NCBI GenBank assembly: GCA_951812395.1
Contig: CATOSD010000001.1
Span: forward strand, 1,211,108-1,275,107
Reading direction: 5' to 3'
Length of the DNA: 64,000 bases
Source of the DNA: an uncultured Dehalococcoidia bacterium
Lineage (GTDB): Bacteria; Chloroflexota; Dehalococcoidia; Lucifugimonadales; CATOSD01
In this document: in pieces, positions 2,613-59,235 of the stretch
How positions within the stretch are numbered: position 1 is the first letter of the stretch
Layout: each line of letters starts with the position of its first letter
Notes under the pieces: model-generated
What the model saw: the letters and a program-made list of their open reading frames with translations, nothing else
Databases searched by the model: none
Told to the model about the DNA's origin: nothing
Made by a program: the position numbers and the translations under genes

Positions 2613-5263
<2,651 letters not shown>

Positions 5264-5267
<4 letters not shown>

Positions 5268-7719: not shown

Positions 7720-7747
7720 GCCAGACGCTGCGAGTGTTGACGCTGGG

Positions 7748-7805
7748 GTGACCGTCCGCCACGCCACCCCCATCCTAACCTTCCCCCTGCGAGGGGGAAG
7801 GGACT
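7748..7805 (+). repeat. family-1 REP-like hairpin repeat (ccccatcctaaccttccccctgcgagggggaagg)
   Basis: Intergenic. Perfect hairpin ccttccccc-tgcga-gggggaagg preceded by the conserved catcctaacc flank. Confidence 0.85.
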
Positions 7806-7821
7806 TTGAAAGGGCCATGCT

Positions 7822-9876: not shown

Positions 9877-9951
9877 GACGAGGGCCGGCGTGATCCAATA
9901 CCTGGCAATTGGCAGTGCCCGATTCATGCGCCGGACCTGGAGCAAACAAAC

Positions 9952-10317
9952 ATGGCATCCGACACCCGCGTCGAGTATTGTAACGCTGCAGGCCGTGATT
10001 TCCTGCAGAGGGCGTGGGCGTATCTGGCCGATGGCGACCTGCTGCAGGCGTCAGAGAAGGGCTGGGGCGCCGCGGCCCAGATGGTAAAGGCCGCTGCAGG
10101 GACCCGCGGCTGGAGGCACCAGGATCACCGTAGCTTGTACGAGGCCGTAGATCGCCTTGCCAGAGGGACCGGAGACGCTAGCATTAGAACAGGATCTAGC
10201 GAGGCAGGAGCGCTGCATACCAACTTCTACGAGGGTTGGCTGCCCCTAGAGGCCGTCGAACACAGCCTGTCCCAGGTCGCCGAGCTGGTGGACAAACTGG
10301 CGGCGCTCAGGGGCTGA
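9952..10317 (+). CDS. four-helix PaREP1/HEPN-like protein
   Basis: 121 aa. The pattern FL.RA..YL..GDL.QASEKGWGAAAQ.VKA ... ALHTNFYEG resembles the PaREP1 family as I remember it. RBS is weak. Confidence 0.45.
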   Translation: MASDTRVEYCNAAGRDFLQRAWAYLADGDLLQASEKGWGAAAQMVKAAAGTRGWRHQDHRSLYEAVDRLARGTGDASIRTGSSEAGALHTNFYEGWLPLEAVEHSLSQVAELVDKLAALRG

Positions 10318-10536
10318 CTATTGGCCCATGTCGCCGACTTCGAGATACAACCCGGGCGGCAGTTCGCGCCCGCGTTCTTCGTACAGTTCGACCGCTGTGA
10401 TGAGAACGTGATTTGCGTTCTCCGGCACCGACTCAAACGAGTCTCCCTCCGCCACGAACTCCGGTAGCAACGTAGAAGTTACCGTGAACCCTTCTTCCGG
10501 TTGGGGTGAGAGCGTGGACGGAAGGCTGGCTATCAT
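10318..10536 (-). CDS. HicB-like (UPF0150) antitoxin-fold small protein
   Basis: The last 72 aa of a longer ORF, starting at ATG 10536. GFTVTSTLLPEFVAEGDSFESVPENANHVLITAVELYEERG matches the HicB/UPF0150 pattern (PdLPG..seGdT.EEA..na.eAi.l.le). Upstream the reading frame runs into a repeat element. Confidence 0.5.
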   Translation of the reverse strand: MIASLPSTLSPQPEEGFTVTSTLLPEFVAEGDSFESVPENANHVLITAVELYEERGRELPPGLYLEVGDMGQ

Positions 10537-10542
10537 TGGCGG

Positions 10543-10580
10543 GCACCCCCGTCCTAACCTTCCCCCTCGCAGGGGGAAGG
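10543..10580 (+). repeat. family-1 REP-like hairpin repeat
   Basis: cacccccgtcctaaccttccccctcgcagggggaagg, lying between the Mo-hydroxylase stop and the HicB-like start. Confidence 0.85.
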
Positions 10581-10595
10581 TGTTCTTGGTACTGG

Positions 10596-12851
10596 TTACT
10601 CCCCAGCCTCGGCGATCGCCTTGGACACGGCGCCAGGGTTCATCGGCAGGTTGGACATGCGGACGCCCGTCGCGTTGTGGACGGCGTTGGCTATTGCGGC
10701 CAGTGGCGGCACGATGTTGGCCTCGCCCACGCCACGCACTCCGTAGGGATGGCCGGGATTGAAGACTTCCACAATCACGCTCTCGATCATTGGCAGGTCG
10801 AGCGAGGTGGGCATCCGGTAGTCCAGCAGGCTGGAGTTCGCCATGGCGCCCTCGTCGTTCAGGTAGTACTCCTCGTTGATCGCCCATCCCACGCCCTGCG
10901 CGGTGCCGCCCTGGATCTGGCCCTCCACATAGCTTGGGTGAATCGCGAACCCCACGTCCTGGAACGCGGTAACTCGCAGAATGTCTATCTTTCCGGTGTC
11001 GGGGTCGACTTCGACGTCGATGATGTTTGCCGCGTAGGAGCCGCCTGACCCGCCCGGGTTCATGTTGGCGCGTCCGACCACGGGGCCGCCCGTCTGCGGC
11101 AGCACGCCAGCGACCTCCTCGAACGTCATGCTCAGCTCGGGGTCGGACGCGTGGCGCAGCGCGCCGTCCGCGTACTCCACCTGGTCGGGGGTCGTCTCCC
11201 AGAGTAGGGCTGCGCGCTCGATTAGCTGGCGCTTGACGTCGTTTGCGGCCTCGTAGGCTGCCCAGCCGGTCTTGAACGCTACGCCGCTGCCGCCGGTGTT
11301 GGACGTGTAGCCGATGGTGTCGGTGTCGGCGACCTGCGGGATCACGTTCTCGACCGGGATTCCGAGCACCTCGGCAAACTGCTGCGCCACCGCCGTGCGC
11401 GTGCCTCCGATGTCAACCGAGCCTTCGACCAGGCTGACGTTACCGTTCGAGAGTACGTTGGCCACCACGCAGGACATTCCGGTGTTGTTGCGGCAGAAGC
11501 CCATGCTGACGCCGCGCCCGCGGTTGGGGCCTTCGAGGGGCGTGTTGTAGTGCGGGTGGGCCTTGATGGCCTCCATAACCTCCTGGGCGCCGATGCGAAG
11601 GTTCATCACGCCGTCTGCACGGCGCGTGCCCTCTCTGGCCGCGTTCTGCAGGCGCAGGTCGACTGCGTCCATGCCCAGGCTTTCGGCCAACTCGTCCACG
11701 ACGCACTCGACAGCGAAGGCGACTATGGGCGCGCCGGGGGCGCGGTACGGCGACGTCTTCGGCTTGTTGTCGACCACGTCGTAGGAGTCTATCTGGACGT
11801 TTTCGATGTTGTAGGGCGCGAAGATGGCGGCGTTGGCGCCGGACAGCGGCGCGCCGGGATATGCGCCCGCCTCGAATGCGTAGTAGGCGTGCGCGGCCGT
11901 GATGCGGCCGTCGGTGGTTGCGCCGATCTTGATGCGCAGGTGCGCCCCTGAGGTGGGGCCGGTGGCCTCCATGACCTCGGCGCGGCTCATCGTAATCTTG
12001 ACGGGGTGGCCGCTCTTCTTCGAGAGCGTTGCCGCCACCGGCTCAAGGTAGGGGTTCAGCTTTCCTCCGAACCCGCCGCCAATCTCCATCGGAACTACTT
12101 TGATGTCTGAGACGGGTACGCCCAGCACCTTGGCGGTGCTGTCCCGAACGCCGAAGTGGCCCTGGCTGCTGCACCAGATCGTAAGCCTGTCGTTGGGTGC
12201 CCACCAGGCGGTGGCGTTCTGCGGCTCGATGTAACCCTGGTGGACGGTCTTGGTGCGGAACTCGCGCTCCAGCACCACGTCGGCCTGTGCGAAGCCGGCG
12301 TCCGGGTTACCGAACCTGTGCTGCTCGAAGCCCGCGATGTTGCGTCCCTCTGTGGAGTCGCCGCCGGGTGTGGGCCGATTCTCCCAGTGCTCGTGGAGAA
12401 CGGGCGCCCCTTCCCGCATAGCGTCCTCGACATTGGTGACCGCGGGCAGAGGCTCGTAATCGACGTCTATCAGCGCCAGCGCCTCTTCGGCGACGTGCGG
12501 GCTGCTCGCGGCCACGGCCGCCACAGGGTGGCCCTTGTAGAACACCTTGCCCTTGGCCAGGATGTTCTCGCTGATCGGTGAGCCGAGCACCGCCATCTGG
12601 GGCGTCGGGGGCGTGGGCGCCAGGTCTGCGGACGTAACCACCGCCAGGACTTCGGGGTGGGCCTCGGCTCTGCTGGTGTCTATGGACTTGATGCGGGCGT
12701 GGGAGTGCGGGCTGCGAAGCACCTTGCCGTGCAGCAGACCGGGCAGCCGCATGTCGGCGCCGTAGAGCGCCCTGCCCGTAACCTTGTCGACACCGTCGTG
12801 CCTGATGGGACGGGTGCCGACTACTTTATACTCTCTCGTTTCGGTGGCCAT
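10596..12851 (-). CDS. xanthine dehydrogenase/aldehyde oxidase/CoxL-family molybdopterin-binding large subunit
   Basis: 751 aa. N-terminal VVGTRPIRHDGVDKVTGRALYGADM and LHGKVLRSPHSHARIKSID. C-terminal GVGE...PP.AAIANAV. Confidence 0.9.
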   Translation of the reverse strand: MATETREYKVVGTRPIRHDGVDKVTGRALYGADMRLPGLLHGKVLRSPHSHARIKSIDTSRAEAHPEVLAVVTSADLAPTPPTPQMAVLGSPISENILAKGKVFYKGHPVAAVAASSPHVAEEALALIDVDYEPLPAVTNVEDAMREGAPVLHEHWENRPTPGGDSTEGRNIAGFEQHRFGNPDAGFAQADVVLEREFRTKTVHQGYIEPQNATAWWAPNDRLTIWCSSQGHFGVRDSTAKVLGVPVSDIKVVPMEIGGGFGGKLNPYLEPVAATLSKKSGHPVKITMSRAEVMEATGPTSGAHLRIKIGATTDGRITAAHAYYAFEAGAYPGAPLSGANAAIFAPYNIENVQIDSYDVVDNKPKTSPYRAPGAPIVAFAVECVVDELAESLGMDAVDLRLQNAAREGTRRADGVMNLRIGAQEVMEAIKAHPHYNTPLEGPNRGRGVSMGFCRNNTGMSCVVANVLSNGNVSLVEGSVDIGGTRTAVAQQFAEVLGIPVENVIPQVADTDTIGYTSNTGGSGVAFKTGWAAYEAANDVKRQLIERAALLWETTPDQVEYADGALRHASDPELSMTFEEVAGVLPQTGGPVVGRANMNPGGSGGSYAANIIDVEVDPDTGKIDILRVTAFQDVGFAIHPSYVEGQIQGGTAQGVGWAINEEYYLNDEGAMANSSLLDYRMPTSLDLPMIESVIVEVFNPGHPYGVRGVGEANIVPPLAAIANAVHNATGVRMSNLPMNPGAVSKAIAEAGE

Positions 12852-12945
12852 GTCTACTCCTTAGACGTGATGGATTCGTGGTCCGGGGCGGCGACGCGAG
12901 GCCGTTAAAGGCGCGTGGGCGCCGCGAAGCAATCTTATCATACCC

Positions 12946-13002
12946 GTCACCCCCATCCTAACGTTCCCCCTTCGAGGGGGATGGGGATTTAGGTGGGGAA
13001 GG
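12946..13002 (+). repeat. family-1 REP-like hairpin repeat (variant)
   Basis: gtcacccccatcctaacgttcccccttcgagggggatgggg, abutting the ggt stop codon. Confidence 0.8.
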
Positions 13003-14844: not shown

Positions 14845-15051
14845 ATGCCGCACGACCAGCACGAATGTGACGCGCACGAGCACCACGGCGGACCGGGCCA
14901 CGTTCACGATCCCCACGAGTGCGACGACCATGAGCACCACGGGCACGACCACGACCAGCACGAGTGTGACGAGCACGAGCACCACGGCGAGCCCGGGCAC
15001 GTCCACGACCCCCACGAGTGCGACGACCACGAGCACCACGGGCACTCCTAA
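14845..15051 (+). CDS. His/Cys/Asp-rich small metal-binding protein (internally duplicated)
   Basis: 68 aa with 24 His and 4 Cys, all Cys in HECD motifs. A 31-aa unit is repeated twice, at 14854-14946 and 14953-15045. Strong RBS gaAGGAGGatctccATG. It sits upstream of a CDF transporter. Confidence 0.75.
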   Translation: MPHDQHECDAHEHHGGPGHVHDPHECDDHEHHGHDHDQHECDEHEHHGEPGHVHDPHECDDHEHHGHS

Positions 15052-15070
15052 CTCTACCTAGCGTCGGCGG

Positions 15071-15100
15071 GTTGAGAGCGTGCTTCGGCACCTTCTCAAC
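15071..15100 (+). other. stable hairpin with UUCG tetraloop downstream of the His-rich ORF
   Basis: gttgaga-gc-gtgc-ttcg-gcac-ct-tctcaac. No trailing U-tract, so it is not a canonical intrinsic terminator. Confidence 0.5.
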
Positions 15101-15122
15101 TCGCTTCACAATTCCTCCGCAA

Positions 15123-15171
15123 CCCTTGGGATTTGCACGTCTTGCACCCTATTGCGTGGAAATCCAAAGGG
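15123..15171 (+). promoter_or_regulatory. 12-bp imperfect inverted repeat enclosing TTGCAC direct repeats, upstream of the CDF gene
   Basis: Arms are cccttgggattt and aaatccaaaggg, with one mismatch. The loop holds TTGCAC-N3-TTGCAC-N4-TTGCGT. Candidate operator or RNA structure. Confidence 0.35.
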
Positions 15172-15389
15172 TGTGCACGTGTCCGGGCAGTCGTCGGCAA
15201 GGGCTTCGCCAGTAGGCCCATTCCGCCACCTTCCCTAGTGATACCTCCATCGAGGGGCAGAAAGTGAGACTGGACAGGATGCTAAATGTCAGGCGCTCCC
15301 TCCAGGAATTGCTATCGTCCCTGAGGCCCACTCCGGCCCTACGCATGAGCGCGGCAGGCCCCGTTCGAATTGGTTCCAACCACCTCTAC

Positions 15390-16571
15390 ATGGCATCCTC
15401 CGGTAGGCAGGAAGGACACGGTCACAACGGCCACAGCGACCATGACGACCATGGTCATAATGGGCATAGCGGCCAGGATCGCAACGGCCATACCGGCCAC
15501 GACCATAACGGACATGCCGCTCACGACGACCACGGTGACCATGAGGGCCACGACCACGACGGAGATGATGACCACGAGGGCCACGACCACGGCGGGCACG
15601 ACCACAGCGGGCACGATCACCAAGACGAGCTGAGATTCGCCAGCCGGAGAAGCCTGGTCATCGGCCTTGTGCTTATCTCGACCTATATGTTCGTCGAGAT
15701 TGTCGGCGGCGTGCTGTCCGGCAGCCTGGCGTTGCTGGCGGACGCCGGTCACATGGCGACCGACGGGGCGGCCATCGCGCTCGCTCTGCTGGCCATGTGG
15801 CTTGCCGACAAAGGCCCCACGGCAGAGCGCACGTTCGGCTTCTACCGCACCGAGATTCTGGCCGCGCTTTTCAACGCCGTCAGCCTGTGGGTCGTCGCCG
15901 GCTACATCCTCTTCGAGGCCTACCACCGCTTTGTAGACGTGCCGCACATCGAGGGCGTGCTGATGATGGTGGTCGGCGTCGGCGGCCTTGTAATCAACAT
16001 CATCACTGCCTGGGTGCTGCACGGCGCATCCCAGCACAGCCTGAACGTGGAAGGCGCGTTCCAGCACGTCCTCGGCGACCTGCTCGGCTCGGTCGCGGTG
16101 GTCGTCTCCGGCATATTCATTCTCACGCTGGAATGGTACATAGTCGATCCCATTCTAAGCGTGTTGATAGCGCTGTTCATCGTCTACAACACGCGCCACC
16201 TGGTTCGCAAGATTGCGGTAGTGCTGGTGGAAGGCACGCCCCCGCACATCGACCTATACGAGCTGTTCGACAGCCTGGAGGACGTGGAGGGCGTCACCAT
16301 CGTACACGACCTGCACGTGTGGACGATTTCGTCGGGCTACGACGCGCTGAGCACGCATGTGCTGGTGGACCGTAACTACCACGGCGGCTTCGACGCACTG
16401 CTGGACGCGCTGCGAGAGGTGATCAAGGGCGAGTACGGCATTACTCACGTTACCGTGCAGATGGAGTACTCGACCACGGAGTGCGACGAGGCCCACCCGC
16501 CGTGGAGCCTGCTCACCGAGAAGCGGCTGGCCCGCGCCGAGAGGCTGCTGGGGCCGGATGCCGCGGGCTGA
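15390..16571 (+). CDS. cation diffusion facilitator (CzcD/ZitB-type) transporter with long His-rich N-terminal tail
   Basis: The conserved TM core begins at LVIGLVLISTYMFVEIVGGVLSGSLALLADAGHM. About 80 N-terminal residues are GH/DH repeats. ATG 15390 was chosen as start; the ORF is open from 15264. Confidence 0.9.
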   Translation: MASSGRQEGHGHNGHSDHDDHGHNGHSGQDRNGHTGHDHNGHAAHDDHGDHEGHDHDGDDDHEGHDHGGHDHSGHDHQDELRFASRRSLVIGLVLISTYMFVEIVGGVLSGSLALLADAGHMATDGAAIALALLAMWLADKGPTAERTFGFYRTEILAALFNAVSLWVVAGYILFEAYHRFVDVPHIEGVLMMVVGVGGLVINIITAWVLHGASQHSLNVEGAFQHVLGDLLGSVAVVVSGIFILTLEWYIVDPILSVLIALFIVYNTRHLVRKIAVVLVEGTPPHIDLYELFDSLEDVEGVTIVHDLHVWTISSGYDALSTHVLVDRNYHGGFDALLDALREVIKGEYGITHVTVQMEYSTTECDEAHPPWSLLTEKRLARAERLLGPDAAG

Positions 16572-23328: not shown

Positions 23329-23413
23329 TGCCGAAGGTCGGAGTCGAACCGACACGGGATTTAACTCCCAACGGTTTTTGAGACCGCCGCGTCTACCATT
23401 CCGCCACTTCGGC
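23329..23413 (-). tRNA. tRNA-Leu (anticodon CAA)
   Basis: Reverse complement reads GCCGAAGTGGCGGAATGGTAGACGC...GGT-CTCAAAA-ACC... with a long variable arm, T-arm GTCGGTTCGACTCCGAC and acceptor CTTCGGCA. Folded by eye. CCA is not encoded. Confidence 0.88.
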
Positions 23414-23488: not shown

Positions 23489-23537
23489 CGATGCGGAATG
23501 ACCGCATTAGATTCCTCGGCTGCGCTCGGAATGACAC
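23489..23537. repeat. family-2 small repeat (cggaatgac...attcctcggctgcgctcggaatgac)
   Basis: Matches the motif gtcattcc-agcg-a-gc-gaggaat also seen at 30919 and 57293. Confidence 0.6.
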
Positions 23538-23655
23538 GGTGGGGCGCCGGTTGGGATGGCACACCTGGGCGTCGGCTCGGATGGCACACGTGGGCCCCGG
23601 CTGGGATGGCACACCTGGCGCCGGCTCGAATGGCACACCTGGCGCCGGCTGGGGA
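23528..23655. repeat. tandem array, 5 copies of a 25-bp unit (consensus GGATGGCACACCTGGCGCCGGCTCG)
   Basis: Unit starts at 23530, 23555, 23580, 23605 and 23630. There are no unique spacers. Confidence 0.85.
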
Positions 23656-27853: not shown

Positions 27854-27976
27854 TTCGCCTCCGGTAACAGCGAAAATCGGCCTCGAGTGCAGGTTGGCCT
27901 AGCCTGGCACAGGCATTAGTTACTTATTTCACAGAGCTTATCATCTCGCGCCAGGCAAGTCAATTCAGAGTCTGTG

Positions 27977-28625
27977 TCAGATTACCAGGCGCCCCCAAAA
28001 GCCATCTCCCTTGCCAAAACCTGCCCCGGAGCCCAACTCTGAACCTACGACCATCGCCTTGACGCTGTGGAGCCAATGTCCCCCTGCTAACGCCCCAACG
28101 TACCCCCCTGCCGCTCCCCCTCGCCCAAACCCGACCCCTTCGCTACCCGGCACCCCGAAAGAAACCGTCACCTTCCCGCGCCGCCCGTGTTCTGGCCCTA
28201 CCCCACACAAGTCCTGCGCTCGCCAAACCACGCCCCCAGGTCTGCGCAATTTCTCCCCACCGTTCCGGCCAAATCCCGCAATCTCGCCCGTTACTGTTCA
28301 GACTTCGTGAGTGTCACGAGCCCCTCCCTACTTTTCGCCACGCCCTCTTGCAATAGCCGCACATACGTGCTAACCTCGTCCAGGCGAAGGACAGACCCCG
28401 CGGCCCGGAATCCCTACACGCAATCGGGATTATTCCACAGGCATTCGTAGGGGCGTCGATAACTGGCCTCCGGTCACCGGCCACCGACCCCCCTGTCCTA
28501 GTCTGTCACGCGGCGCGACACTTGTGCTCAGATATCCCGCGCTCGGCATTACAGATTCGCGCAGGAACGCCGGCACTCCCAGCTAAGAACACAACACAAT
28601 GTCGCAGAAACAAACAGAATTCGCT
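27977..28625 (+). repeat. large dispersed non-coding element, copy A
   Basis: Collinear blocks are shared with the reverse complement of 47873-48420. Examples: aaaccgtcacNNtcccgcgcc, caatttctccccacc, gcacatNcgtgct, gaccccgcggcNcggaa, accggccaccg, ctgtcacgcggcgNgacactt, cattacaga, aatgtcgcagaaacNaacaga. No conserved ORF. Confidence 0.8.
28358..28386 (+). promoter_or_regulatory. promoter-like module TTGCAA-N17-TAACCT with GCAC-ATAC-GTGC palindrome filling the 3' end of the spacer
   Basis: The same geometry recurs at 48153-48181 (minus strand), 57365-57393 and 34748-34776. Confidence 0.5.
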
Positions 28626-28698
28626 TTCCCTCTTTCGCTGGGACAGCAGTTGGGGGGCGCCGAATAAACTGAAACACGATCGTCAATTCAAACGGCGC

Positions 28699-28727
28699 TT
28701 GACACGGCTGTTCTGCCTTGGTACACT
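28699..28727 (+). promoter_or_regulatory. lexA promoter candidate TTGACA-N17-TACACT
   Basis: Near-consensus hexamers with a 17-nt spacer, 54 nt upstream of the lexA ATG. Confidence 0.6.
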
Positions 28728-28731
28728 TTGC

Positions 28732-28745
28732 CGAACATTTGGTCA
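28732..28745 (+). promoter_or_regulatory. candidate SOS box CGAACATTTGGTCA just downstream of the lexA -10
   Basis: Matches 11 of 14 positions of the Gram-positive/Dehalococcoides-type consensus CGAACRNRYGTTYC, as I remember it. Confidence 0.3.
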
Positions 28746-33218: not shown

Positions 33219-33304
33219 AGCCCAGGTGGCGGAATGGAAGACGCGGCGGACTTAAAATCCGCTTCCCTAACAGGAGTGGGGGTTCGAATCCCTTCCTGGG
33301 CACC
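33219..33304 (+). tRNA. tRNA-Leu (anticodon TAA), CCA encoded
   Basis: GCCCAGGTGGCGGAATGGAAGACGC, anticodon arm GCGGA-CTTAAAA-TCCGC, long variable arm, T-arm GGGGGTTCGAATCCC, then CCTGGGCACCA. Confidence 0.9.
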
Positions 33305-34547: not shown

Positions 34548-34747
34548 TCCTCGAAACCTCCGTTTGAGTGCGAAACAGTATAGTTTTGCACCACCGTACA
34601 GTCAACAAGCCGGTCAATAGGGAAGATGTGTCAAGTTACTAGGTGCGCGAGAAATCTCCTTCCCGTGCGAGCCGGAATCCGGGAGGGCCAGGGCCTCCCT
34701 GTGTTGTACGCCTGGTAGTCTGAGGCAGGCCAACTCTCAATCCCCCA

Positions 34748-34776
34748 TTGACACTCCAGCACATGCGTGCTGCTCT
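34748..34776 (+). promoter_or_regulatory. promoter-like module TTGACA-N17-TGCTCT with GCAC-ATGC-GTGC palindrome
   Basis: Same -35, 5 nt, 12-nt palindrome, hexamer geometry as at 28358. The -10 is poor. Confidence 0.35.
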
Positions 34777-35143
34777 TCTCCACATGCCAGCCACAACCAC
34801 CGTATCCGCCGCCCGTTTCCTCCGGGCCGTCGCCGCGTCGCTCGCCCGAACTACCCGACTTTCGACCAAGGGAGTCCCGTCTAACACCAACTCCAAAACC
34901 TCTCATGACCGCCTTGTACGCTCTCAAATTGCTCTCAACCGGGCGTCCCAAGCGATGAGTCTCAAGTACGAATCCTGCAAAACGAACCGAAGTTAGACAC
35001 CTTTACCGAAAATTCCCATTCGGCAGCCGTCATCTCCTGCCGATAAACGCGTGTGATTGAGCGGCTATCCCCGGCGGCGCCCGTTGACCCAAGTCATCCG
35101 CCTACCCTACCATCGACTCACGTTTGGGACGAGGAGGCAACGG

Positions 35144-36037
35144 TTGAAAGATGGCGATTCCCTACCGGACGACGTGCCGGACAACATCAAAGAGTTCATT
35201 CGCCGAATTAGCAGGGGCGACTTCCCGGACGAACTGCCGGCGAATCTATCTGACTATTTCTCCTCGATCGCCATGCTCAGTTCTTCGGGCATGGGTGCGC
35301 CGCCGGCCATGTCGCGCGAACCCGATGGCGTTGAGTTGCTGAAAGGCGTCGCCCCCGCCGAATGGGTAGCCGAACGGCTCTGGAGAAGCGCACCGCATAA
35401 GGGACTATTGGTGGGGTCGTTAATCCCGGAGGGATTCGAAGCCTACGCGCGCATATTCCACCCGGCCAGTTACCAGTCGGACGACAGGGAGTGGCACAGG
35501 GTGAGTTGGGCCACCGTGGCGGATTGGTACGGCAAGGTCGTCCATCCCCAAATGACCTTTCCCCGACTGGTAAACCTGGACTGGCTCGAACATCCCTCGT
35601 GGGGTTCGCTCCCAGAGATGGGCACTCTGCCCGAAGTGGAATGTAAGCCCCTGCTGGACGTTCTCAGGGAGTTCACCACCACGCCCGAAAGTTGCTACTT
35701 CGCCGTCTGGGAAGGCTATGGCGGTTTCGACGAACGCGTTGGCAAGGGAGTGGCCAAGCTGGCGTCCCCGTTTCTCGACAGGAAATACTATATCTTCCAC
35801 GGCCCCTTGGACAGCGTCATGTCGTTCTGCCAGTGGGAATTCTTCCTCCAGGCTCCCAACATCTGGTGGCCGGAAGACCGCGCCTGGTGCGTGGCCACCG
35901 AGATAGACGACCTCGAAACCTTCGTCGGCGGCAGCGCGGCCTGCATAGAGCGCGTGCTCGCCCACCCGGAACTGGAGGCGTTGCCAATCGCCCTCGACGC
36001 GCGCGTGGACGCCTTCGGGGATACGGTTAACGGGTAG
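35144..36037 (+). CDS. hypothetical protein
   Basis: TTG start 6 nt after GAGGAGG. The ORF is open from 35057. Conserved-looking C-terminal block APNIWWPEDRAWCVATEIDDLETFVGGS. I cannot name a family with confidence. Confidence 0.6.
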   Translation: MKDGDSLPDDVPDNIKEFIRRISRGDFPDELPANLSDYFSSIAMLSSSGMGAPPAMSREPDGVELLKGVAPAEWVAERLWRSAPHKGLLVGSLIPEGFEAYARIFHPASYQSDDREWHRVSWATVADWYGKVVHPQMTFPRLVNLDWLEHPSWGSLPEMGTLPEVECKPLLDVLREFTTTPESCYFAVWEGYGGFDERVGKGVAKLASPFLDRKYYIFHGPLDSVMSFCQWEFFLQAPNIWWPEDRAWCVATEIDDLETFVGGSAACIERVLAHPELEALPIALDARVDAFGDTVNG

Positions 36038-38043: not shown

Positions 38044-38088
38044 AGTCCCTTCCCACTTGATGGGGGAAGGCTAGGTTGGGGGTGACGG
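38044..38088 (-). repeat. family-1 REP-like hairpin repeat (reverse orientation)
   Basis: agtcccttccc-acttgat-gggggaagg-ctaggttgggggtgacgg. Confidence 0.8.
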
Positions 38089-44147: not shown

Positions 44148-45380
44148 ATGATTCTTCTCGTTCGCAACTCCAAGTTCCGACTGCTCTGGGTCGCCGGCCT
44201 GTTCAGCGACGTGGCCATCACGCTGTACATCCTGGCGCACGGCTGGTTGGCCCTGCAGGTCACCGACTCGGCGTTCTGGGTGGGCGCGACCGCCGGAATG
44301 GCCGGGCTGGGCATGATGCTGTGCGCCGGTTTCGCGGGAGTGATGGCCGACAGGCTGGACCGCCGCGTGCTGTTCATCGTCTCCCAGGCGGCGCAGGCGG
44401 CCATTTTCGCCGGCGTCGCGGTGCTGGTGTTCACCGACCGCATCGAGCTTTGGCAGATACTGGCGACGGCGCTCGCGGACGGCATCCTCATGGCCGTCAA
44501 GCTGCCGGCGCGCATGACGCTGGTGCTGGACGTTGCGGGCCGCGAGAACCTGCTCAAGGCGAACGCTGCCAACTTCGTCGCCATGACCATCGCCGGCATC
44601 ACCGTGCCGCTGCTGGCCGGCCCGGTCGTGGACACGTTCGGCATCGGCTGGATTTATGCCGTCATGGTCGGAGCGCTTGCGTTGTCCGGCGTGTTGATGG
44701 TGTTTCTGCGCGGCTTCGGGACTTCGGGTCGGAAGCGGGAAACCTCTCCGCTTGCCGACCTGAAGGAGGGCGTTCGCTTCACGCTGGGCACGCCCCAGAT
44801 TCGCATCCTCATCCTGATGATGCTGTCGTCTGAGGTGTTCGGATGGTCCCACGAGACGATGCTGCCGGTTATGGCGGGCAAGGTTCTGGACGTCGGGCCC
44901 ACGGGGCTGGGTTACATGTTCTCGGCGGGCAGCGCCGGCGCGCTCATTTCGTCGCTCACGCTGTCGGCGCTCGGCGAGGGGCGCAGCGCGGGCCGGCTGC
45001 TGGTGTTCGGGTACATGGGCTTCGGCGCGTTCCTGATGCTGTTCGCGGCGTCGTCCTGGCTGCCGCTCTCGCTTGTGCTGCTGCTGGCGGCCTACGGATC
45101 GGGCGTTCTCTACGAGGCTACGCTGATCACTGTGCTGCAGCGGGCGGTGCCCCACGACATGCGTGGTCGCGTGCTGAGCATTCAGTCGTTCACCTGGGGC
45201 ATGACAGGGTTCTCCGGATTCTACACCGGAAGCATAGCCACCCTGCTGAGCGCCCCCGTAGCGATAGCCATAGGCGGCTCGGTGCTGGCGTTGAACGGAC
45301 TGCGGGTGTCGCGGCGGGTAATCCGCTTGTACTCCATCGCCACTGCCCAGACCGAGCCTGCCCAGGCGGACACTCCCTAA
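44148..45380 (+). CDS. MFS transporter (EntS/DUF894-like)
   Basis: 410 aa, about 12 TM segments. N-terminal RNSKFRLLWVAGLFSDVA and GVMADRLDRR. Confidence 0.85.
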   Translation: MILLVRNSKFRLLWVAGLFSDVAITLYILAHGWLALQVTDSAFWVGATAGMAGLGMMLCAGFAGVMADRLDRRVLFIVSQAAQAAIFAGVAVLVFTDRIELWQILATALADGILMAVKLPARMTLVLDVAGRENLLKANAANFVAMTIAGITVPLLAGPVVDTFGIGWIYAVMVGALALSGVLMVFLRGFGTSGRKRETSPLADLKEGVRFTLGTPQIRILILMMLSSEVFGWSHETMLPVMAGKVLDVGPTGLGYMFSAGSAGALISSLTLSALGEGRSAGRLLVFGYMGFGAFLMLFAASSWLPLSLVLLLAAYGSGVLYEATLITVLQRAVPHDMRGRVLSIQSFTWGMTGFSGFYTGSIATLLSAPVAIAIGGSVLALNGLRVSRRVIRLYSIATAQTEPAQADTP

Positions 45381-45422
45381 GTCCCTTCCCCTAGCATGGG
45401 GAAGGCCAGGATGGGCGTGAGG
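45381..45422 (-). repeat. family-1 REP-like hairpin repeat (reverse orientation)
   Basis: gtcccttcccc-tagca-tggggaagg-ccaggatgggcgtgagg, starting right after the MFS stop codon. Confidence 0.8.
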
Positions 45423-47233: not shown

Positions 47234-47313
47234 GTCACCCCCATCCTAACCTTCCCCCTGCGAGGGGGAAGGGACTTTCGAATCCTGACCTTCCCCTGCG
47301 AGGGGGAAGGGAC
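47234..47313 (+). repeat. family-1 REP-like repeat, two tandem hairpins
   Basis: gtcacccccatcctaaccttccccctgcgagggggaagggac, then ctgaccttcccctgcgagggggaagggac. Confidence 0.9.
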
Positions 47314-47330
47314 TATTGGAAAAAACCCCC

Positions 47331-47741
47331 TTAGCCGGGGACCTTCCATTCCGGCACGAGTTGGCCGTTGGCGGTTTCCTCGAACACCACCTCGACAGCC
47401 GCGCCTACCGGCACGTCGTCGACCGGCACCCCCGGCAGGTGGGAGTACATCTGAATGCCCTGGTCCTCGTCCAGCATCACCACGGCCAGGTTGAACGGCT
47501 GGTCCTCCTGGAGCGAGGCTATCGGGCAGTCGTACACCACGCAGTAGTTGTAGATGGTGCCCTTGCCGCTCATCTGCTTCCACTCCAGTCCGTCGGACGA
47601 GCCGCACTGCGAGCAGGACGGCAGCGGCGGGTTCTGCAGCCGGTCGCACACGCTGCAGTTCTGGATGACGAGGCGCTGCTCGTTGGCCGCGTCCCAGAAA
47701 GGCTTGGTAAGTTCGTCGGGTATCACGCCCTGTTTCACCAT
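47331..47741 (-). CDS. DUF35 OB-fold/zinc-ribbon acyl-CoA-associated protein
   Basis: Start MVKQGV with GGAGG RBS. Zn ribbon C.VCDR....P...CS.CGS followed by an OB fold. Typical partner of the thiolase-like gene. Confidence 0.85.
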   Translation of the reverse strand: MVKQGVIPDELTKPFWDAANEQRLVIQNCSVCDRLQNPPLPSCSQCGSSDGLEWKQMSGKGTIYNYCVVYDCPIASLQEDQPFNLAVVMLDEDQGIQMYSHLPGVPVDDVPVGAAVEVVFEETANGQLVPEWKVPG

Positions 47742-48152
47742 GTTGGTCGGACCTCCATTGTGGTTGCGACAGATGATAGTACAAAGCGCGCGCGATTCCA
47801 ACCGGCGGGCCTAGCGCGCTGCCCGCACCGCCATCTCGTTGCCTCACATCGTGATCCCTTCGAATGCGTCGGGGCGAAATCTGTTAGTTTCTGCGACATT
47901 CTGTTGTATTCGTAGCTGGGGGCGCCGGCGGTTCTGCGCAACTCTGTAATGCTGGCGTGGGCAATTCGGGGCAGAAGTGTCACGCCGCGTGACAGAGTGG
48001 GACAGGGGCCGGTGGCCGGTTTTCGACGCCACAGGGCACCCACAAGGGACGCCCGTACGGATGCCTGGGGCATTGTCCCTATTGGGGGTAGGGTTTCCGC
48101 GCCGCGGGGTCGGTCCCTCGGGCGGGTTTGAAGCCCGCACCTAACATGAGCG

Positions 48153-48181
48153 ATAATAGCACGGATGTGCGTGCAATACAA
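48153..48181 (-). promoter_or_regulatory. promoter-like module TTGTAT-N17-TATTAT with GCAC-ATCC-GTGC palindrome (minus strand)
   Basis: Points toward the DUF35/thiolase operon. Same geometry as at 28358. Confidence 0.5.
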
Positions 48182-48388
48182 GACAGATGGCGAGATTGCC
48201 GTCTGAAGCCGGATTGGTGGGGAGAAATTGAGCAGGCGCGGGGATGAGATTGGGCGTTCGTGGGGTTCGGATGGAGCACGGCCGGGGCACGGGTGGCGCG
48301 GGAGAGTGACGGTTTTTTTGGAGTACGAGGGGCGAATGGGGTCGGGCGTGGGCCAGAGGGCGCGTTCGGGGGGCATGGCTCTACGCGC

Positions 48389-48417
48389 TTGCCATCCCCC
48401 ACAACCCCCACTAGAAT
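48389..48417 (+). promoter_or_regulatory. TTGCCA-N17-TAGAAT promoter, 6 nt upstream of ATG 48424 (leaderless-type)
   Basis: Hexamers and spacing seen directly. No Shine-Dalgarno is possible in the 6 nt. Confidence 0.6.
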
Positions 48418-48423
48418 CCGCCA

Positions 48424-49782
48424 ATGAGCTCGCTTTCCAAATCCGGCCTTCCGCGTTGGCCGTCCTGGGCGGGCGGCAGCGACTTCCAGGGCCGCGCCGG
48501 GTCCGCCATCACGCACCCCGCGACCGTCGCGGCGCTGGGCGTGCTGTTGCTGAACGACCTGCTGTTCAAGTCGCTGTGGCCCCACTGGTGGCTCACCGGC
48601 AAGCTCAGCGACCTCGCGTGGGTGGTGTTCGCGCTTCCACTGCTGGCGTTCCTGCTTTCGTTCGCCGCGCGGCGGAACGTCCGCGCCTGCCGCCTGGCGT
48701 TCGTCGCAGCCTACGTTGGTCTGCCGCTCCTCTACGCCGCGTTCAACACGTTCGAGCCGGTGCACGACGTGATCATGCGCGGCATCTCGCTCGCGGGCGG
48801 CGCCGCCGGCTCCCCTCGGGACGCGACAGACTCGCTGGTCATCCCGCTCGCGTGGGGTGCGGCGCTGTGGGTATGGCGGAGGGAGGTGCCCGCTGCGGGC
48901 GCGATGCGGCTGCGGTGGGCGGTGCTGGTGGCGGGGGTGGCGGCGCTGGCGAGCGTGGCGACGAGCGAAAGTGGGCCAGTCTATGGTGTGCAGAGGATCG
49001 GCGTTTCTCATGACGGACTGGTTGTCGCCGACGTCGACTACGGTGGATTCTGGAGCCTGGACGGCGGCTTGACCTGGAACCCTATTGAACACCAACTTGG
49101 TGATATTGCTTGGGGAGATCAAGATGTGGAAACGCCCAGGGGCCGCTACATACTCGATGGGCCGCGTGTGCTGCGGGTCAGTGCCGACGGCGCCAAGGAA
49201 GAGGTCGTCTACTCCGCCGAGTACCTGAAACAGGACGGTAACGTCTGGGTCCAAACGGTCTCTACTGAGAGTCTCGGACGGCGAAGTATCGGAACCCAAC
49301 CGGTGGCGATGGTCTACGACGAACGGAGCGGCAATCTTGCGCTGGCAATGGGTATCCAGGGTGTGGTGGTCGGAACGCCAGATGGCCAATGGGTCCCCAG
49401 AACCGTAGCGCAATTCAAACCTACTGACTTCTCGCTCGAGACGAAGACACGGCTTTTGCTATTTGACTTCGATTTCCACACCTCAGTACTGATACTTGCC
49501 TTGGCGATGACAGGAGCAGCCTTCATAGCCTCCCAGCATAGGCGACAAGATTTGCTGAGGAGCGTACTCATTGCTCCCATCGCAGGAATTGCGGCAATGT
49601 TTATGGTGGGCACTCTTTTCTTGCTTCCTCTATATCTAGCACTCTTTGTTCCGCCGGTATCTAACGTACCTCAGACCGTCATAGTGCTCCTGGTGGTTCC
49701 ACTCGGATCGGGCTTCGTCATAGGCTCGGAAGCGCGACGAAGCGAATTTTGGAACATCGGCGTGATGGAGTTGGAATACTAG
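48424..49782 (+). CDS. multi-TM protein with central Asp-box (BNR) region, paralog 1 (N-terminal part of a split gene?)
   Basis: 452 aa. The first ~168 aa are nearly identical to the ORF at 50767. Asp-box SLDGGLTW at 49054-49077. The C-terminus has TM helices. Confidence 0.7.
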   Translation: MSSLSKSGLPRWPSWAGGSDFQGRAGSAITHPATVAALGVLLLNDLLFKSLWPHWWLTGKLSDLAWVVFALPLLAFLLSFAARRNVRACRLAFVAAYVGLPLLYAAFNTFEPVHDVIMRGISLAGGAAGSPRDATDSLVIPLAWGAALWVWRREVPAAGAMRLRWAVLVAGVAALASVATSESGPVYGVQRIGVSHDGLVVADVDYGGFWSLDGGLTWNPIEHQLGDIAWGDQDVETPRGRYILDGPRVLRVSADGAKEEVVYSAEYLKQDGNVWVQTVSTESLGRRSIGTQPVAMVYDERSGNLALAMGIQGVVVGTPDGQWVPRTVAQFKPTDFSLETKTRLLLFDFDFHTSVLILALAMTGAAFIASQHRRQDLLRSVLIAPIAGIAAMFMVGTLFLLPLYLALFVPPVSNVPQTVIVLLVVPLGSGFVIGSEARRSEFWNIGVMELEY

Positions 49783-50766: not shown

Positions 50767-52518
50767 ATGAGCTCGCTTTCCAAATCCGGCCTTCCGCGTT
50801 GGCCGTCCTGGGTGGGCGGCGGCGACTTCCGGCGCCGCGCGGAGTCCGCGCTGACGCATCCCGCCACCGTCGCGGCGCTGGGCGTGCTGTTGCTGAACGA
50901 CCTGCTGTTCAAGGCGCTGTGGCCCCACTCGTGGCTTACCGGCAAGCTCAGCGACCTCGCCTGGCTGATACTCGCACTGCCGCTGCTTGCGTTCCTGCTC
51001 TCGTTTGCCGCCCGCGGCAGCCTCCGTGCTCGCAGGTTGGCGTTCCTGGTCGCCTACGCGGGGTTGCCGCTCCTCTACGCCGCGTTCAACACGTTCGACC
51101 CGGTGCACGACCTGATCATGCGCGGCATCTCCCTCGCGGGCGGCGCCGCCGGTTCCCCTCGCGACGCCACGGACTCCCTCGTCATCCCGCTCGCGTGGGC
51201 CGCGGCGCTGTGGGTGTGGCGGCGGGAGGTGCCCGCTGCGGGCGCGATGCGGCTGCGGTGGGCGGTGCTGGTGATGTGCTTTGCTGCGCTTGCGATAGGG
51301 TCGTCGTGTGAGAGAGAGCCGCTGTATGGGGTCAAGAGAATCGGCGTTTCCGGCGATGGAGCAATTGTCGTAGAGGCCGAATACGGCCCGTTCAAAAGCG
51401 TAGATGGCGGCATGACATGGAACACGAGTGAGGGGCTGTCAGGACCAGTTCATTGGGGCGGCGGAAGCGCGGATACTCCGTGGGGTCGTTTCGTGATCGA
51501 CGGCCCGCGTGTGGTCAGCGTAGGCGACGACCGAGTTGTCTACTCGACAGAGTACCTAGCAAGGGACGGCAACTTGTGGGTACAGAAGGTGTCGACTGAA
51601 AGGTTGAATTCGACGAGAGAGATTTCCCTCACTCCGAGAGGAATCGCATTTGACGACCAAAGTGGCAACTTGGTGCTGGCCCTGGGAATACAGGGAGTCG
51701 TGGTTGGGGCAGCCGACGGGGAGTGGCGGGCCATCGCCGTAGGCCCATTTGAACCGACCGAGTTTTCGTTAACTGGTAAGACGCTACTGCTGGTGACTGA
51801 TCTCAAGTTTTGGACGGCGACTTTGGCTCTAGCACTCTCCATGACTGGGGTCGGACTCATAGCATCCCGGTACCCGTGGCGGGTCTTACGGTGGTCGGTT
51901 CCTACCGCGCTGCTGTCAACAATCATGGCTATAGTGCTTTTGGTCAACATAGTCACGGGACCGAGGAATTCAATAGGAGACACCTTTGGCCTGCTCATCG
52001 CGCTATGTGTGCCCTTTGGTCCAATCGTGGTAGCCATTGCAGTCGACTCGACGCCCCGATACGGAAACATCCGGGCCCTGGCATCAATCAACGTTGCCGT
52101 TTTCCCACTTCTGGCCTCTGTAGTACTACTCTTCGCTTTCGGCTATTCAGACGACGAGCGCGGCGGAATCTCCGATCTCCTCATTTATGCTGTTTCGATA
52201 CTGGCCTATTTCCTAGTGGTTGTGTCGCTGTTGGTGTCCTGGGATCGGCTCAGGCGCTGGCCTCTGGTTATAGCGTCAGTTGCTGGCATGACGGTGCTCG
52301 TCACTCTAGTGTTCATGTTGTGGTTGCACCTGAGCGTCGATGAAATTGTGACCAAGTCCGCTACGGTCGCGCTATGCGGAGTCGCAGCTGGCATTCTTGC
52401 CGGATACATAGGTCACACAACTCCGGTGGAAGTGGGGTCATGCTCAACCTGCGGAAGTTTCGTTTTGGCTTCAGAAAGGCAGTGTAACGATTGCGGAGCG
52501 TTGCAAACTCAAGACTGA
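50767..52518 (+). CDS. multi-TM protein with central Asp-box region and C-terminal zinc ribbon, paralog 2
   Basis: 583 aa. Asp-box SVDGGMTW. C-terminal ribbon CSTCGSFVLASERQCNDCGA. Confidence 0.75.
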   Translation: MSSLSKSGLPRWPSWVGGGDFRRRAESALTHPATVAALGVLLLNDLLFKALWPHSWLTGKLSDLAWLILALPLLAFLLSFAARGSLRARRLAFLVAYAGLPLLYAAFNTFDPVHDLIMRGISLAGGAAGSPRDATDSLVIPLAWAAALWVWRREVPAAGAMRLRWAVLVMCFAALAIGSSCEREPLYGVKRIGVSGDGAIVVEAEYGPFKSVDGGMTWNTSEGLSGPVHWGGGSADTPWGRFVIDGPRVVSVGDDRVVYSTEYLARDGNLWVQKVSTERLNSTREISLTPRGIAFDDQSGNLVLALGIQGVVVGAADGEWRAIAVGPFEPTEFSLTGKTLLLVTDLKFWTATLALALSMTGVGLIASRYPWRVLRWSVPTALLSTIMAIVLLVNIVTGPRNSIGDTFGLLIALCVPFGPIVVAIAVDSTPRYGNIRALASINVAVFPLLASVVLLFAFGYSDDERGGISDLLIYAVSILAYFLVVVSLLVSWDRLRRWPLVIASVAGMTVLVTLVFMLWLHLSVDEIVTKSATVALCGVAAGILAGYIGHTTPVEVGSCSTCGSFVLASERQCNDCGALQTQD

Positions 52519-53942: not shown

Positions 53943-53980
53943 ACCTTCTGCCTCACAAGTCCCTTGCCCCTCGCTCGATA

Positions 53981-54024
53981 GTCCCTTCCCCCTTGCAGGG
54001 GAAGGTTAGGATGGGGGTGACGGT
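53981..54024 (-). repeat. family-1 REP-like hairpin repeat (reverse orientation)
   Basis: agtcccttccccc-ttgca-ggggaagg-ttaggatgggggtgacgg. Confidence 0.85.
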
Positions 54025-57229: not shown

Positions 57230-57450
57230 CAAGCCCTTAACTCCCAACTGAGCACACCCCCTACACCCATTTCGAGCGGAGCGCTCTCTCTCGTCATTCC
57301 TAGCGAAGCCGAGGAATACGAAGCGTCCGTCGGCAAGGCCTCCTTCCCTTTCTCGACAACCCTCTTGATTTCTACGCACATCCGTGCGATTCTCCCCATG
57401 ACGAGGGACTGACCCCCTATCCGGCGAGCACGGACGGCCAGGTACGAGGC
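57230..57450 (+). repeat. diverged partial copy (copy C) of the large dispersed element, with a family-2 repeat inserted at 57293-57323
   Basis: cctccttccctttctcgacaaccctcttgatttctacgcacatccgtgcgattctcc...gagggactgacccc parallels copies A and B around the promoter-palindrome module. Confidence 0.5.
57365..57393 (+). promoter_or_regulatory. promoter-like module TTGATT-N17-GATTCT with CGCAC-ATCC-GTGCG palindrome
   Basis: Same geometry as at 28358. The -10 is weak. It points toward comM. Confidence 0.4.
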
Positions 57451-57634
57451 ACATGCGCACTGTGTCATTCTTGGGCGGTTATGGTGCTTTCATAGCTGAG
57501 TCTGTGTATGGAGGCGTGCCAGACCGTAGCAGCCATGCAGCCTTCCCAGCTATGGAATGGCACAGAAAGACCCAGGATGACACACATTTCGGCCAATTCG
57601 CCGACGGTTCGCCCCATCATCGCCCTCACAGAGC

Positions 57635-57663
57635 TTGACGGCGTGTTCCGAACGTACTAGAAT
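57635..57663 (+). promoter_or_regulatory. comM promoter candidate TTGACG-N17-TAGAAT
   Basis: Hexamers and 17-nt spacer seen directly, 33 nt upstream of the ATG. Confidence 0.55.
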
Positions 57664-57696
57664 AGGCGTGCTAATCCTGTTTTCGGAGTCCAGCCA

Positions 57697-59235
57697 ATGC
57701 TCGCCAAGTGCAAGACCTGCGCCGTCGTCGGCCTGAACGGCCTGATAGTCGAAGTCGAGGTAGATATCCTCCCCGGCCTGCCTGCGTTCAACATCGTCGG
57801 CCTGCCCGACGCCGCCGTGAAGGAGGCCAGCGAGCGGGTGCGCTCGGCCATCCGCAACGCCGGCTGCGAGTTCCCCATGCGCCGCATCACAGTCAATCTC
57901 GCGCCCGCCGACCACCGCAAGGCCGGCCCCGCCTACGACCTGCCCATCGCCGTCGCGCTGCTCGTCAGCTCCGGCCAGATCGAGGACGTCCCCAGATCAT
58001 CCATATTCTTGGGAGAGTTGTCCCTCGACGGGACGCTCCGCCACACCAATGGCATACTGCCGATGGTGGCCGTCGCGCGCGAAGAGGGCATGCAGCGCGT
58101 GTTCGTGCCGGCCCCCGACGCCAACGAGGCCGCCTTGGTGGACGGTGTGGAGACCATCCCGGTCTCCTCGCTGGGGCAACTGCTTCACCACCTGAACGGT
58201 GGTCCCAGAATCTCACCCGCGGCGAGCGACATCGCCGCCGACACCAACGGCTTTGTGTCCGCGGACGACTGCCGTGGAGGTGTGGACATCGCCGACATTC
58301 GCGGCCAGGAGCACGCCAAGCGCGCCATCGAGGTCGCCGCGGCGGGCGGGCATAACCTGCTCATGAGCGGTCCGCCCGGAAGCGGCAAGACGCTGCTCGC
58401 GCGCAGCCTGCCATCCATCCTCCCCAGGCTGACCCAGGACGAGGCGCTGGAGGTCACCAAGATATTCAGTATCAGCGGGCTGCTCCCCTCGTCGTCCCCG
58501 CTCATCAACCGGCGCCCCTTCCGGTCGCCGCACTATACCATCTCCAACGCGGGACTCGTGGGCGGCGGCCGCATCCCCAGGCCCGGCGAGATTACGCTGA
58601 GCCACCGGGGCGTGCTGTTCCTCGACGAGCTGCCGGAGTTCGGGCACACGGTTCTGGAGGTGTTGCGCCAGCCCATCGAAGACAAGGTGGTTACCATCAG
58701 CCGCGCCCAGGGCACCGTAACCTTCCCCGCAAACTTCATGCTCGTGGCTGCCATGAACCCCTGCCCTTGCGGATTCGCCGGAGACCCAGGCAAACAGTGC
58801 GTCTGCTCCCCAAGCCAGGTCACCCGCTACTCCAAGCGGATCAGCGGCCCGCTGATGGACAGGATTGACCTGTTCGTCGAAGTGCCCAGGGTCGAATACG
58901 AGAAGCTCACCAGGCCGCCCGAGACGGACACTTCGGCCCGGACGCGCGATCGGATCGAGGCGGCGCGCCTGGTGCAGGCCAGGCGTTTCGAGGGCACGGG
59001 GCTGATCACCAACTCCGAGATGGGGCCGGTCGAGGTGTGGGAGTACTGCAAGGTGGACGACGCGGCCGCCGGCCTGCTGCGCATGGCGACCAGCAGACTG
59101 CACCTGTCGGCGAGGGCGTTCCACCGCGTCCTCAAGCTCGCCAGGACCATCGCCGACCTCGGCGGCGCCGAAAACGTTGAGGCGCCGCACCTCGCCGAGG
59201 CGCTCCAGTACCGCCCCGCCGAGCAGACCGCGTAG
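57697..59235 (+). CDS. comM: YifB/ComM family Mg-chelatase-like ATPase
   Basis: 512 aa. N-terminal Lon-like domain (VEVEVDI.PGLPAFNIVGLPD), Walker A GPPGSGKT, FLDELPEF. Confidence 0.93.
   Translation: MLAKCKTCAVVGLNGLIVEVEVDILPGLPAFNIVGLPDAAVKEASERVRSAIRNAGCEFPMRRITVNLAPADHRKAGPAYDLPIAVALLVSSGQIEDVPRSSIFLGELSLDGTLRHTNGILPMVAVAREEGMQRVFVPAPDANEAALVDGVETIPVSSLGQLLHHLNGGPRISPAASDIAADTNGFVSADDCRGGVDIADIRGQEHAKRAIEVAAAGGHNLLMSGPPGSGKTLLARSLPSILPRLTQDEALEVTKIFSISGLLPSSSPLINRRPFRSPHYTISNAGLVGGGRIPRPGEITLSHRGVLFLDELPEFGHTVLEVLRQPIEDKVVTISRAQGTVTFPANFMLVAAMNPCPCGFAGDPGKQCVCSPSQVTRYSKRISGPLMDRIDLFVEVPRVEYEKLTRPPETDTSARTRDRIEAARLVQARRFEGTGLITNSEMGPVEVWEYCKVDDAAAGLLRMATSRLHLSARAFHRVLKLARTIADLGGAENVEAPHLAEALQYRPAEQTA

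Follow-up and report, generated by a model that had tools for sequence, protein, structure and literature searches.

A decayed transposon copy at a DUF35/thiolase locus, probably from a family of non-autonomous elements placed in fixed register beside host promoters

The 64,000-nt stretch of Dehalococcoidia contig CATOSD010000001.1 analysed here (the window; all positions refer to it, and plus and minus denote its strands) carries a repeated element, one copy of which, copy B, fills an intergenic region between two gene groups. On its left, as judged by Pfam, a minus-strand gene with its ATG at 47741 codes for a ChsH2/DUF35-like OB-fold protein and is followed by one for a thiolase-like protein; on its right lie two paralogous membrane-protein genes without a Pfam match. 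Copy A is placed between a cupredoxin-like lipoprotein gene (minus strand, start 27853) and lexA (plus strand, ATG at 28781). Both copies stand between divergently transcribed genes, as the preliminary description of the locus had it, and its claim that B is inverted relative to A is borne out alike by two pairs of homologous arms (28490-28643/47855-48008 and 28158-28288/48189-48319), by a pairwise alignment in opposite orientation (76% column identity, with indels) and by profile matches. A family profile hidden Markov model (HMM), built from 11 copies and 668 positions long, finds three copies in the window, namely A (E 2e-172), B (E 1e-117) and a diverged remnant, C (E 1.3e-8). The likeness of A and B is genuine and goes well past what chance would produce.

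Copy B is a decayed, immobilised fossil member of a transposon family. In the nhmmer search it covers profile positions 27-537, with neither terminus matched. Alignment to orthologous copies in related strains (L025/L027, DUF35 protein 90% identical), where the left terminal repeat is intact and the contigs stop inside the element, reveals a 16-nt deletion and substitutions in the left repeat of B, and the profile match indicates that the right ~130 nt, right repeat included, are gone. Lacking both the tip of its left repeat and the right ~130 nt, B is unable to move. The limits first proposed for the element, 47873-48420, are off on both sides (Table 1). Copy C, besides its main match, retains a weak trace of the conserved block called module 1 (57542-57593, nhmmer E 0.059) and a promoter module, TTGATT-N17-GATTCT (plus strand), aimed at a comM/yifB-like gene of the Mg-chelatase family (57697-59235). 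That gene also has a promoter of its own, TTGACG-N17-TAGAAT, at 57636-57664.

Table 1. Positions of the element copies, their parts and nearby features in the window
Feature	Position	Strand	Remarks
Copy A, full-length, both terminal repeats	27965-28681	-	717 nt, perfect 9-bp duplication TGAATTGAC
Copy B, decayed	~47811-48374	+	profile match 47842-48374; mutated left-repeat remnant from ~47811
Copy C, diverged remnant	57351-57424	-	nhmmer E 1.3e-8
Host promoter of the DUF35(ChsH2-like)/thiolase operon, TTGGAA-N17-TATCAT	47773-47801	-	outside the element; promoter scan
Module 1 of B, TCTGTTAGTTTCTGCGACATTCTGTTGTATTCGTAGCTGGG	47880-47920	+	three TCTG repeats, 10-nt period
Conserved palindrome/hairpin block of B, AAGTGTCACGCCGCGTGACAGA	47975-47996	+	
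Hypervariable middle segment of B	47997-48150	+	multiple alignment
Predicted internal sigma70-type promoter module of B, TTGTAT-N17-TATTAT	48153-48181	-	-35 48181-48176, -10 48158-48153
Modules 3/3b of B, G-rich, GGTGGGGAGAAATTG...GGTGGCGCGGGAGAGTGACGGTTTTTTTGG	48216-48323	+	near-fixed length, upstream of the internal promoter
Host promoter of membrane/Asp-box paralog 1, TTGCCA-N17-TAGAAT	48389-48417	+	ATG 48424, 6-nt gap
Tandem membrane-protein paralogs with Asp-box-like motifs	48424-49782, 50767-52518		
REP-like hairpin repeat	47236-47316, 7765-7807, 10544-10586, 12948-12990, 38045-38085, 45380-45420, 53980-54020		

The transposon nature of the family is recorded at its ends. The terminal inverted repeats read 5'-GAGCCTGTTTCAGATTACTTGGCGCC, the element ends being 5'-GAGCCTGTTTCAG...CTGAAACAGGCTC-3' (also written 5'-GAGCCTGTTTCAGATTAC...GTAATCTGAAACAGGCTC-3'), and repeats of ~28-31 nt, CCTGTTTCAGATTACTTGGCGCCCCCAA, are found at both ends of copy A and of copies L006, L009, L012, L013 and L014 at other loci. 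Target-site duplications of 9 bp are perfect in A (TGAATTGAC, 9/9) and L012 (CGCCCGCGG, 9/9) and imperfect in L014 (GTGGCCGC[A/C], 8/9) and L006/L009 (GC[T/G/C]GTGAGC, 8/9). The spacer between the cupredoxin gene and lexA measures 927 nt in the window versus 205 nt on the contigs of four relatives with the same neighbouring genes (L020, L021, L023 and L024; LexA 86-90% identical). Each of these empty sites has GTCAATTCA just once, 8 nt upstream of the lexA -35 box, whereas in the window the 9-mer stands on both sides of the element. The empty lexA site, with copy A absent from the relatives, is the decisive evidence of mobility, and together with the terminal repeats and the 9-bp duplications it bears out the earlier epithet “portable”. 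A more distant DUF35 locus (L028) was considered as an empty site for copy B and set aside as unusable, its synteny differing and no element being present.

[quoted passage not shown] The IS256 family of insertion sequences (IS), with its duplications of 8-9 bp and ends that start with G-G/A, would fit both the 9-bp duplication and the 5'-GA/GG ends.

Beyond the window, the family was followed in Dehalococcoidia MAGs and in ENA metagenome assemblies. A 21-mer from the most conserved block matched at six family loci, spread over three Dehalococcoidia MAGs; the 2.99-Mb contig accounts for four. Closed or near-closed MAG contigs with copies of the element include CAXXGY010000001.1, CBDCJA010000002.1 and CBDHFB010000016.1. 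The spurious minus-strand open reading frame (ORF) of copy B, used as a protein query, led to nine domain-less “proteins” (P0001-P0009) predicted from other copies, and the contigs behind them yielded six further copies in ENA metagenome assemblies. Related copies match the profile with E-values from 1e-80 to 1e-193; three matches of the genome scan (L001, L002 and L007) proved to be chance matches outside the family. The public runs containing the locus include one sponge metagenome and one viral metagenome. In runs X1, X2, X3 and X8 the summed contig depth at 47810-48112 is ~10-20 times that of unique flanks, and contigs break at the element, as is typical of a dispersed repeat. The family is multi-copy in sponge-associated Dehalococcoidia. 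A scan of JGI metagenomes with the module-1 21-mer returned no match, and one with the terminal-repeat pattern four chance matches only, one of them within a dehydrogenase gene; in IMG/VR, a module-1 16-mer gave 16 chance matches and a module-3b pattern none, with nothing fitting the family profile.

In an order common to all copies, the element consists, from left to right, of the left terminal repeat, module 1, a palindromic block, a hypervariable stretch, the promoter module, modules 3/3b and the right repeat, with 0-160 nt of extra sequence between the last two. Module 1, TCTGTTCGTTTCTGCGACATTCTGT..., in which TCTG recurs every 10 nt, is the most conserved block of the family: across 13 copies, 19 of the 25 columns at its start do not vary, compared with 49 of 136 columns overall. 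The palindromic block, AAGTGTCGCGCCGCGTGGCAGA, begins 94-95 nt past the start of module 1 in the eight copies A, B, L003-L006, L008 and L009, while the hypervariable stretch (~50-250 nt) differs between copies in both length and sequence and often contains short tandem repeats. Some copies have a second expandable site besides this hypervariable centre, a 24-nt repeat, CCCATTCGGCAAGCTCAGGGCATG, present in one to three tandem units between the left terminal repeat and module 1 (L006 ~711-837, L009 ~878-956, L027 1-90).

A decayed family of protein-coding genes, an origin that the preliminary description had left open, might be suggested by the long minus-strand ORF and the shared peptide strings. 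A minus-strand ORF of 229 codons (47735-48424) does exist and spans copy B, and gene callers have predicted P0001-P0009 from other copies. These “proteins”, however, contain no Pfam domain and are 45-55% identical, against a DNA identity of 76% (A/B) to 84% (module 1 region). Most indels between A and B (10, 2, 2, 17, 13, 1 and 2 nt) have lengths not divisible by three, the variable columns show no preference for a codon phase (29/29/28 and 42/43/39), and none of the six frames stays open in all copies. The peptide strings shared by ORFs of A and B, previously offered as a hint of coding, follow from nucleotide identity, the frames being broken by indels and the substitutions showing no codon periodicity. 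A family of pseudogenes is accordingly rejected as extremely improbable.

More room is left for a structured non-coding RNA, encoded by the conserved modules as a mobile RNA gene or a long structured leader. Two segments of ~125 nt and ~195 nt keep rigid lengths, almost indel-free across copies; on the forward strand G·U pairs can be accommodated in the hairpin GTCGCG-CCG-CGTGGC, for which L011 has one compensatory C-G pair, too little to build on; and the conservation of a promoter implies a transcript of some importance. No recognisable promoter, however, lies on the forward strand, the one that suits the G·U pairs. Rfam gave no match for the element at gathering thresholds, where the whole window returned two tRNAs and noise, and none for copy B at E<=10. 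RNAalifold, applied to 11-13 copies, produced weak energies and covariation near zero, with column-shuffle z-scores of -1.8 and -1.3 for segment 1 and +2.1 and -0.9 for segment 3 (plus and minus strands, respectively). A structured RNA is therefore an improbable account of the conserved modules. Since the spacing is rigid, the TCTG repeats are phased and neither the coding nor the RNA reading is supported, the constraint probably acts at the DNA level, on protein-binding sites; module 1 in particular is a possible protein-binding array for a transposase or a regulator.

The element also carries an internal promoter-like module. In copy B, the predicted TTGTAT-N17-TATTAT promoter on the minus strand, aimed at the DUF35/thiolase operon, agrees in sequence and direction with what had been described, and its spacer holds a GCAC-N4-GTGC palindrome at 48159-48170. 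On the reverse strand of all 14 copies the module takes the form TTG(A/C/T)(A)(A/T), a 17-nt spacer (18 in L003) and TAnnnT; positions T1, A2 and T6 of the -10 box are invariant and positions 3-5 variable, and the palindrome always lies in the spacer. At each of the 13 loci examined the module points toward the left end and its host gene, and no terminator-like site is found on either strand of A or B. This conservation is the pattern expected of a working sigma70-type promoter with a spacer operator. The term “regulatory cassette” used earlier is supported at the level of sequence only, with one internal module in 14/14 copies, while promoter activity itself is only predicted. A, B and C are the sole places in the window with an exact match to the palindrome. 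As the signal of a wider host regulon it was rejected, the window having 12 sites at one mismatch versus 19.8 expected from shuffles. The right terminal repeat of A (27971-27998), L013 and L015 contains an outward-reading, extended -10-like TGGTAATCT ~13 nt from the tip, which was not counted as a promoter, its TG not being conserved in most copies.

A region at 34560-35150 was considered as a fourth copy or mini-element and rejected, its local score of 32 being not significant, since shuffled sequences reach 35. Within it, ~60 nt apart, are two stretches similar to the terminal repeats (34625-34646 and 34709-34735; possibly a mini-element), and 15 nt beyond the second stands TTGACA-N17-TGCTCT, the spacer of which includes AGCACATGCGTGC, differing little from the promoter palindrome of the element (region 34622-34777).

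Reading outward from the left end, seven independent insertions (A, L004/L010, L006/L009, L011, L013, L014 and the B orthologue L025/L027) agree in their order: the element end is followed by the 9-nt duplication, another 7 nt (8 in A), the hexamer TTGnnn, a gap of 17-18 nt and a -10-like hexamer, which is TAnnnT in six of the seven and less clear in L011. An eighth, L012, has the same 9+7+TTGACC layout on its right flank. In all eight independent insertions with an intact terminal repeat beside a host promoter, the element end thus lies 16 nt upstream of the -35 box (9+8 in A). The chance of a TTG at this offset (±1) on either side is estimated by the authors at ~0.04 per locus, and the agreement of eight out of eight is therefore not due to chance. 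A gene reads away from the left end at all 13 loci examined. Several of the adjoining sites can be recognised as real promoters. The host promoter of the DUF35 operon stands 9+7 nt from the intact element end in the orthologous copies. At L013 the adjoining promoter is that of groES, followed by a CIRCE-like inverted repeat (read by eye), and at copy A it is the lexA promoter, TTGACA-N17-TACACT, followed by GAACATTTGGTC (28699-28745). The GAAC-N4-GGTC box after the lexA -10, read by eye, is Cheo-like; GAACATTTGGTC corresponds to a Cheo-type LexA box with one mismatch, the motif reported for Dehalococcoides, and is conserved in the empty-site relatives L020/L023. Literature searches turned up neither this family nor insertions in fixed register upstream of -35 boxes, and such a register appears to be new.

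On the right-hand side of copy B the situation is different from the one first described, in which both ends of a bidirectional cassette pointed promoters at flanking genes. TTGCCA-N17-TAGAAT does exist 6 nt before the ATG of paralog 1, and yet B ceases to match A and the family profile at ~48374, before the promoter begins at 48389. The block starting at 48386 is repeated from 50729 onward and extends into the coding sequence (300 nt, 87% identity), so that what had been taken for the terminal ~60 nt of the element, reused upstream of paralog 2, is a gene duplication. The promoter is the membrane-protein gene's own, copied by that duplication; it is host sequence, and the right end of the family has no conserved outward promoter. 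The paralogous proteins are 61% identical overall, with the first ~180 residues nearly identical, which suggests gene conversion or a recent partial duplication, and the 6-nt gap between -10 box and ATG suggests leaderless mRNAs.

Taken together, copy B is probably a decayed copy of a non-autonomous, MITE-like DNA transposon that carries an internal outward-reading promoter and is set in fixed register upstream of host promoters. The transposase would then select promoter-proximal targets in this register, perhaps by reading a -35-like TTG as a pseudo-end; TTGGCG is found in the element's own repeat, 18 nt away from the tip. The internal module would be a working and probably repressor-controlled promoter, and its transcripts would leave through the left end and provide the targeted gene with a second, upstream promoter; the targeted genes would be the DUF35/thiolase operon (B), lexA (A) and the comM-like gene (C).

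Several observations weigh against this interpretation. L013, with both repeats present, shows no target-site duplication. L005 and L008, whose degenerate left repeats are not precisely placeable, have no TTG at the canonical offset, and the register is drawn from eight independent informative insertions only. Two-ended copies of 493-816 bp exceed the usual size of a MITE (<~300-500 bp), and “MITE-like” or large non-autonomous element is the better name. An autonomous partner with matching repeats was looked for in the window, in the retrieved loci and, by repeat pattern, in JGI metagenome contigs, and none turned up. RNA-labelled runs of the host organism contain nothing from the locus, and the promoter pattern could partly be inherited from selected source elements and not maintained in place.

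In a rival reading, the element is a purely selfish transposon remnant, its internal promoter a leftover of a lost transposase gene with no effect on the host, and its proximity to promoters a preference for safe havens. The layout (right end, ~200-350 nt, leftward promoter, variable junction, conserved left subterminal block) does fit an internally deleted IS with a leftward transposase gene, and insertion just outside core promoters avoids damage. Against this, the 14 diverged copies keep the -35 TTG, the 17/18-nt spacing and T1/A2/T6 while neighbouring -10 positions drift, as if promoter function were still under selection in a copy family that lacks a transposase gene, and no terminator separates the internal promoter from the host gene. 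A purely selfish remnant is thus unlikely, if less so than a structured RNA.

It is tempting to carry the preferred interpretation, that of a MITE-like transposon with an outward promoter, one step further. The transposition machinery may recognise sigma70-type promoters, with the -35 TTG taken for a pseudo-end or with bound RNA polymerase as the cue, and insert the element in one orientation 16 bp upstream of the -35 box. Each insertion would then bring along an operator-controlled upstream promoter and a phased protein-binding array, wiring unrelated genes (lexA, groES, a comM-like gene and metabolic operons) to a common regulator. This extended proposal of a promoter-seeking transposon is tentative and, on balance, doubtful. 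If it were true, landing by the -35 box in a single-nucleotide register and one orientation would be a new mode of target selection for bacterial transposons, and the family would represent a natural route for spreading one regulatory input over unrelated genes in uncultivated sponge symbionts.

Promoter-bearing MITEs as such are established, with Correia, MITEAba12, BrickBuilt, QMITE1 and SonMITE_1 as examples (PMC10969869). The window family resembles the Correia elements of Neisseria (CREE/NEMIS), which are likewise non-autonomous, multi-copy, bounded by inverted repeats, located mostly upstream of genes and equipped with sigma70-like promoters able to drive neighbours (PMC10969869). It differs from them in its size of 0.5-0.8 kb, the 9-bp duplication, the modules split by a hypervariable stretch, the spacer palindrome and the 16-nt register. 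Correia elements measure ~100-155 bp, duplicate TA and contain an IHF site. In Porphyromonas gingivalis, the BrickBuilt MITE combines an internal minisatellite with promoter elements and is always intergenic (PMC4596501), and the window family shares with it the combination of an internal tandem-repeat segment and a promoter element (PMC4596501). Bidirectional promoter activity is reported there for BrickBuilt, unlike the single conserved module seen here, and phylum and sequence are different; the abstract reports no fixed register to host promoters (PMC4596501). MITEAba12 of Acinetobacter baumannii is a similar non-autonomous, IS-derived element for which outward promoters and target-site duplications are discussed (PMC6382973, cited in PMC10969869). 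The window family, unlike MITEAba12, is several-fold larger and has no parent IS found. MITEAba12 itself is ~113 bp long, linked to a known IS and flanked by a 9-bp duplication.

Matus-Garcia, Nijveen and van Passel (2012) reportedly described putative mobile promoters, homologous upstream regions standing before unrelated genes. The family shares this property, with the same upstream sequence found before lexA, the DUF35 operon, the comM-like gene, groES, a ferredoxin gene and others, but here the vehicle is identified (repeats, duplications and an empty site) and the host promoter is kept downstream of the insertion. Tn7 targets attTn7 with a 5-bp duplication, and the yeast element Ty3 targets Pol III start sites. 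Both offer a functional analogy only, in that a fixed distance and orientation from a functional landmark is combined with avoidance of gene disruption; in the window family, unlike in these systems, a sigma70 -35 hexamer serves as the landmark, target sites are duplicated over 9 bp and there is no known targeting protein.

For annotation, these results mean that the “intergenic” blocks of 0.5-0.8 kb and the ORFs called within them (P0001-P0009) are not genes, that element copies break short-read assemblies and that the promoter of the membrane-protein paralogs belongs to those genes.

Other repeats in the window include a REP-like hairpin repeat, CACCCCCATCCTAACCTTCCCCC-TGCGA-GGGGGAAGGGAC, situated at gene ends in both orientations (Table 1). 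Its summed depth in sponge metagenome runs reaches 5,000-13,000 versus ~10-70 for the flanks, a hundreds-fold excess, and one such repeat is inserted inside element copy L003 (~6400-6480). The region 14851-15616 is filled with dense imperfect tandem repeats at 9-, 15- and 21-nt spacings (CACGACCACGAGCACCACGGGCAC...), and these frame-preserving periods suggest a repetitive coding region. Two tRNA genes with long variable arms, at 23329-23413 (minus strand) and 33220-33302 (plus strand), have a 47-nt inverted match in common, and three 25-nt tandem repeats lie ~100 nt from the former, at 23514-23613.

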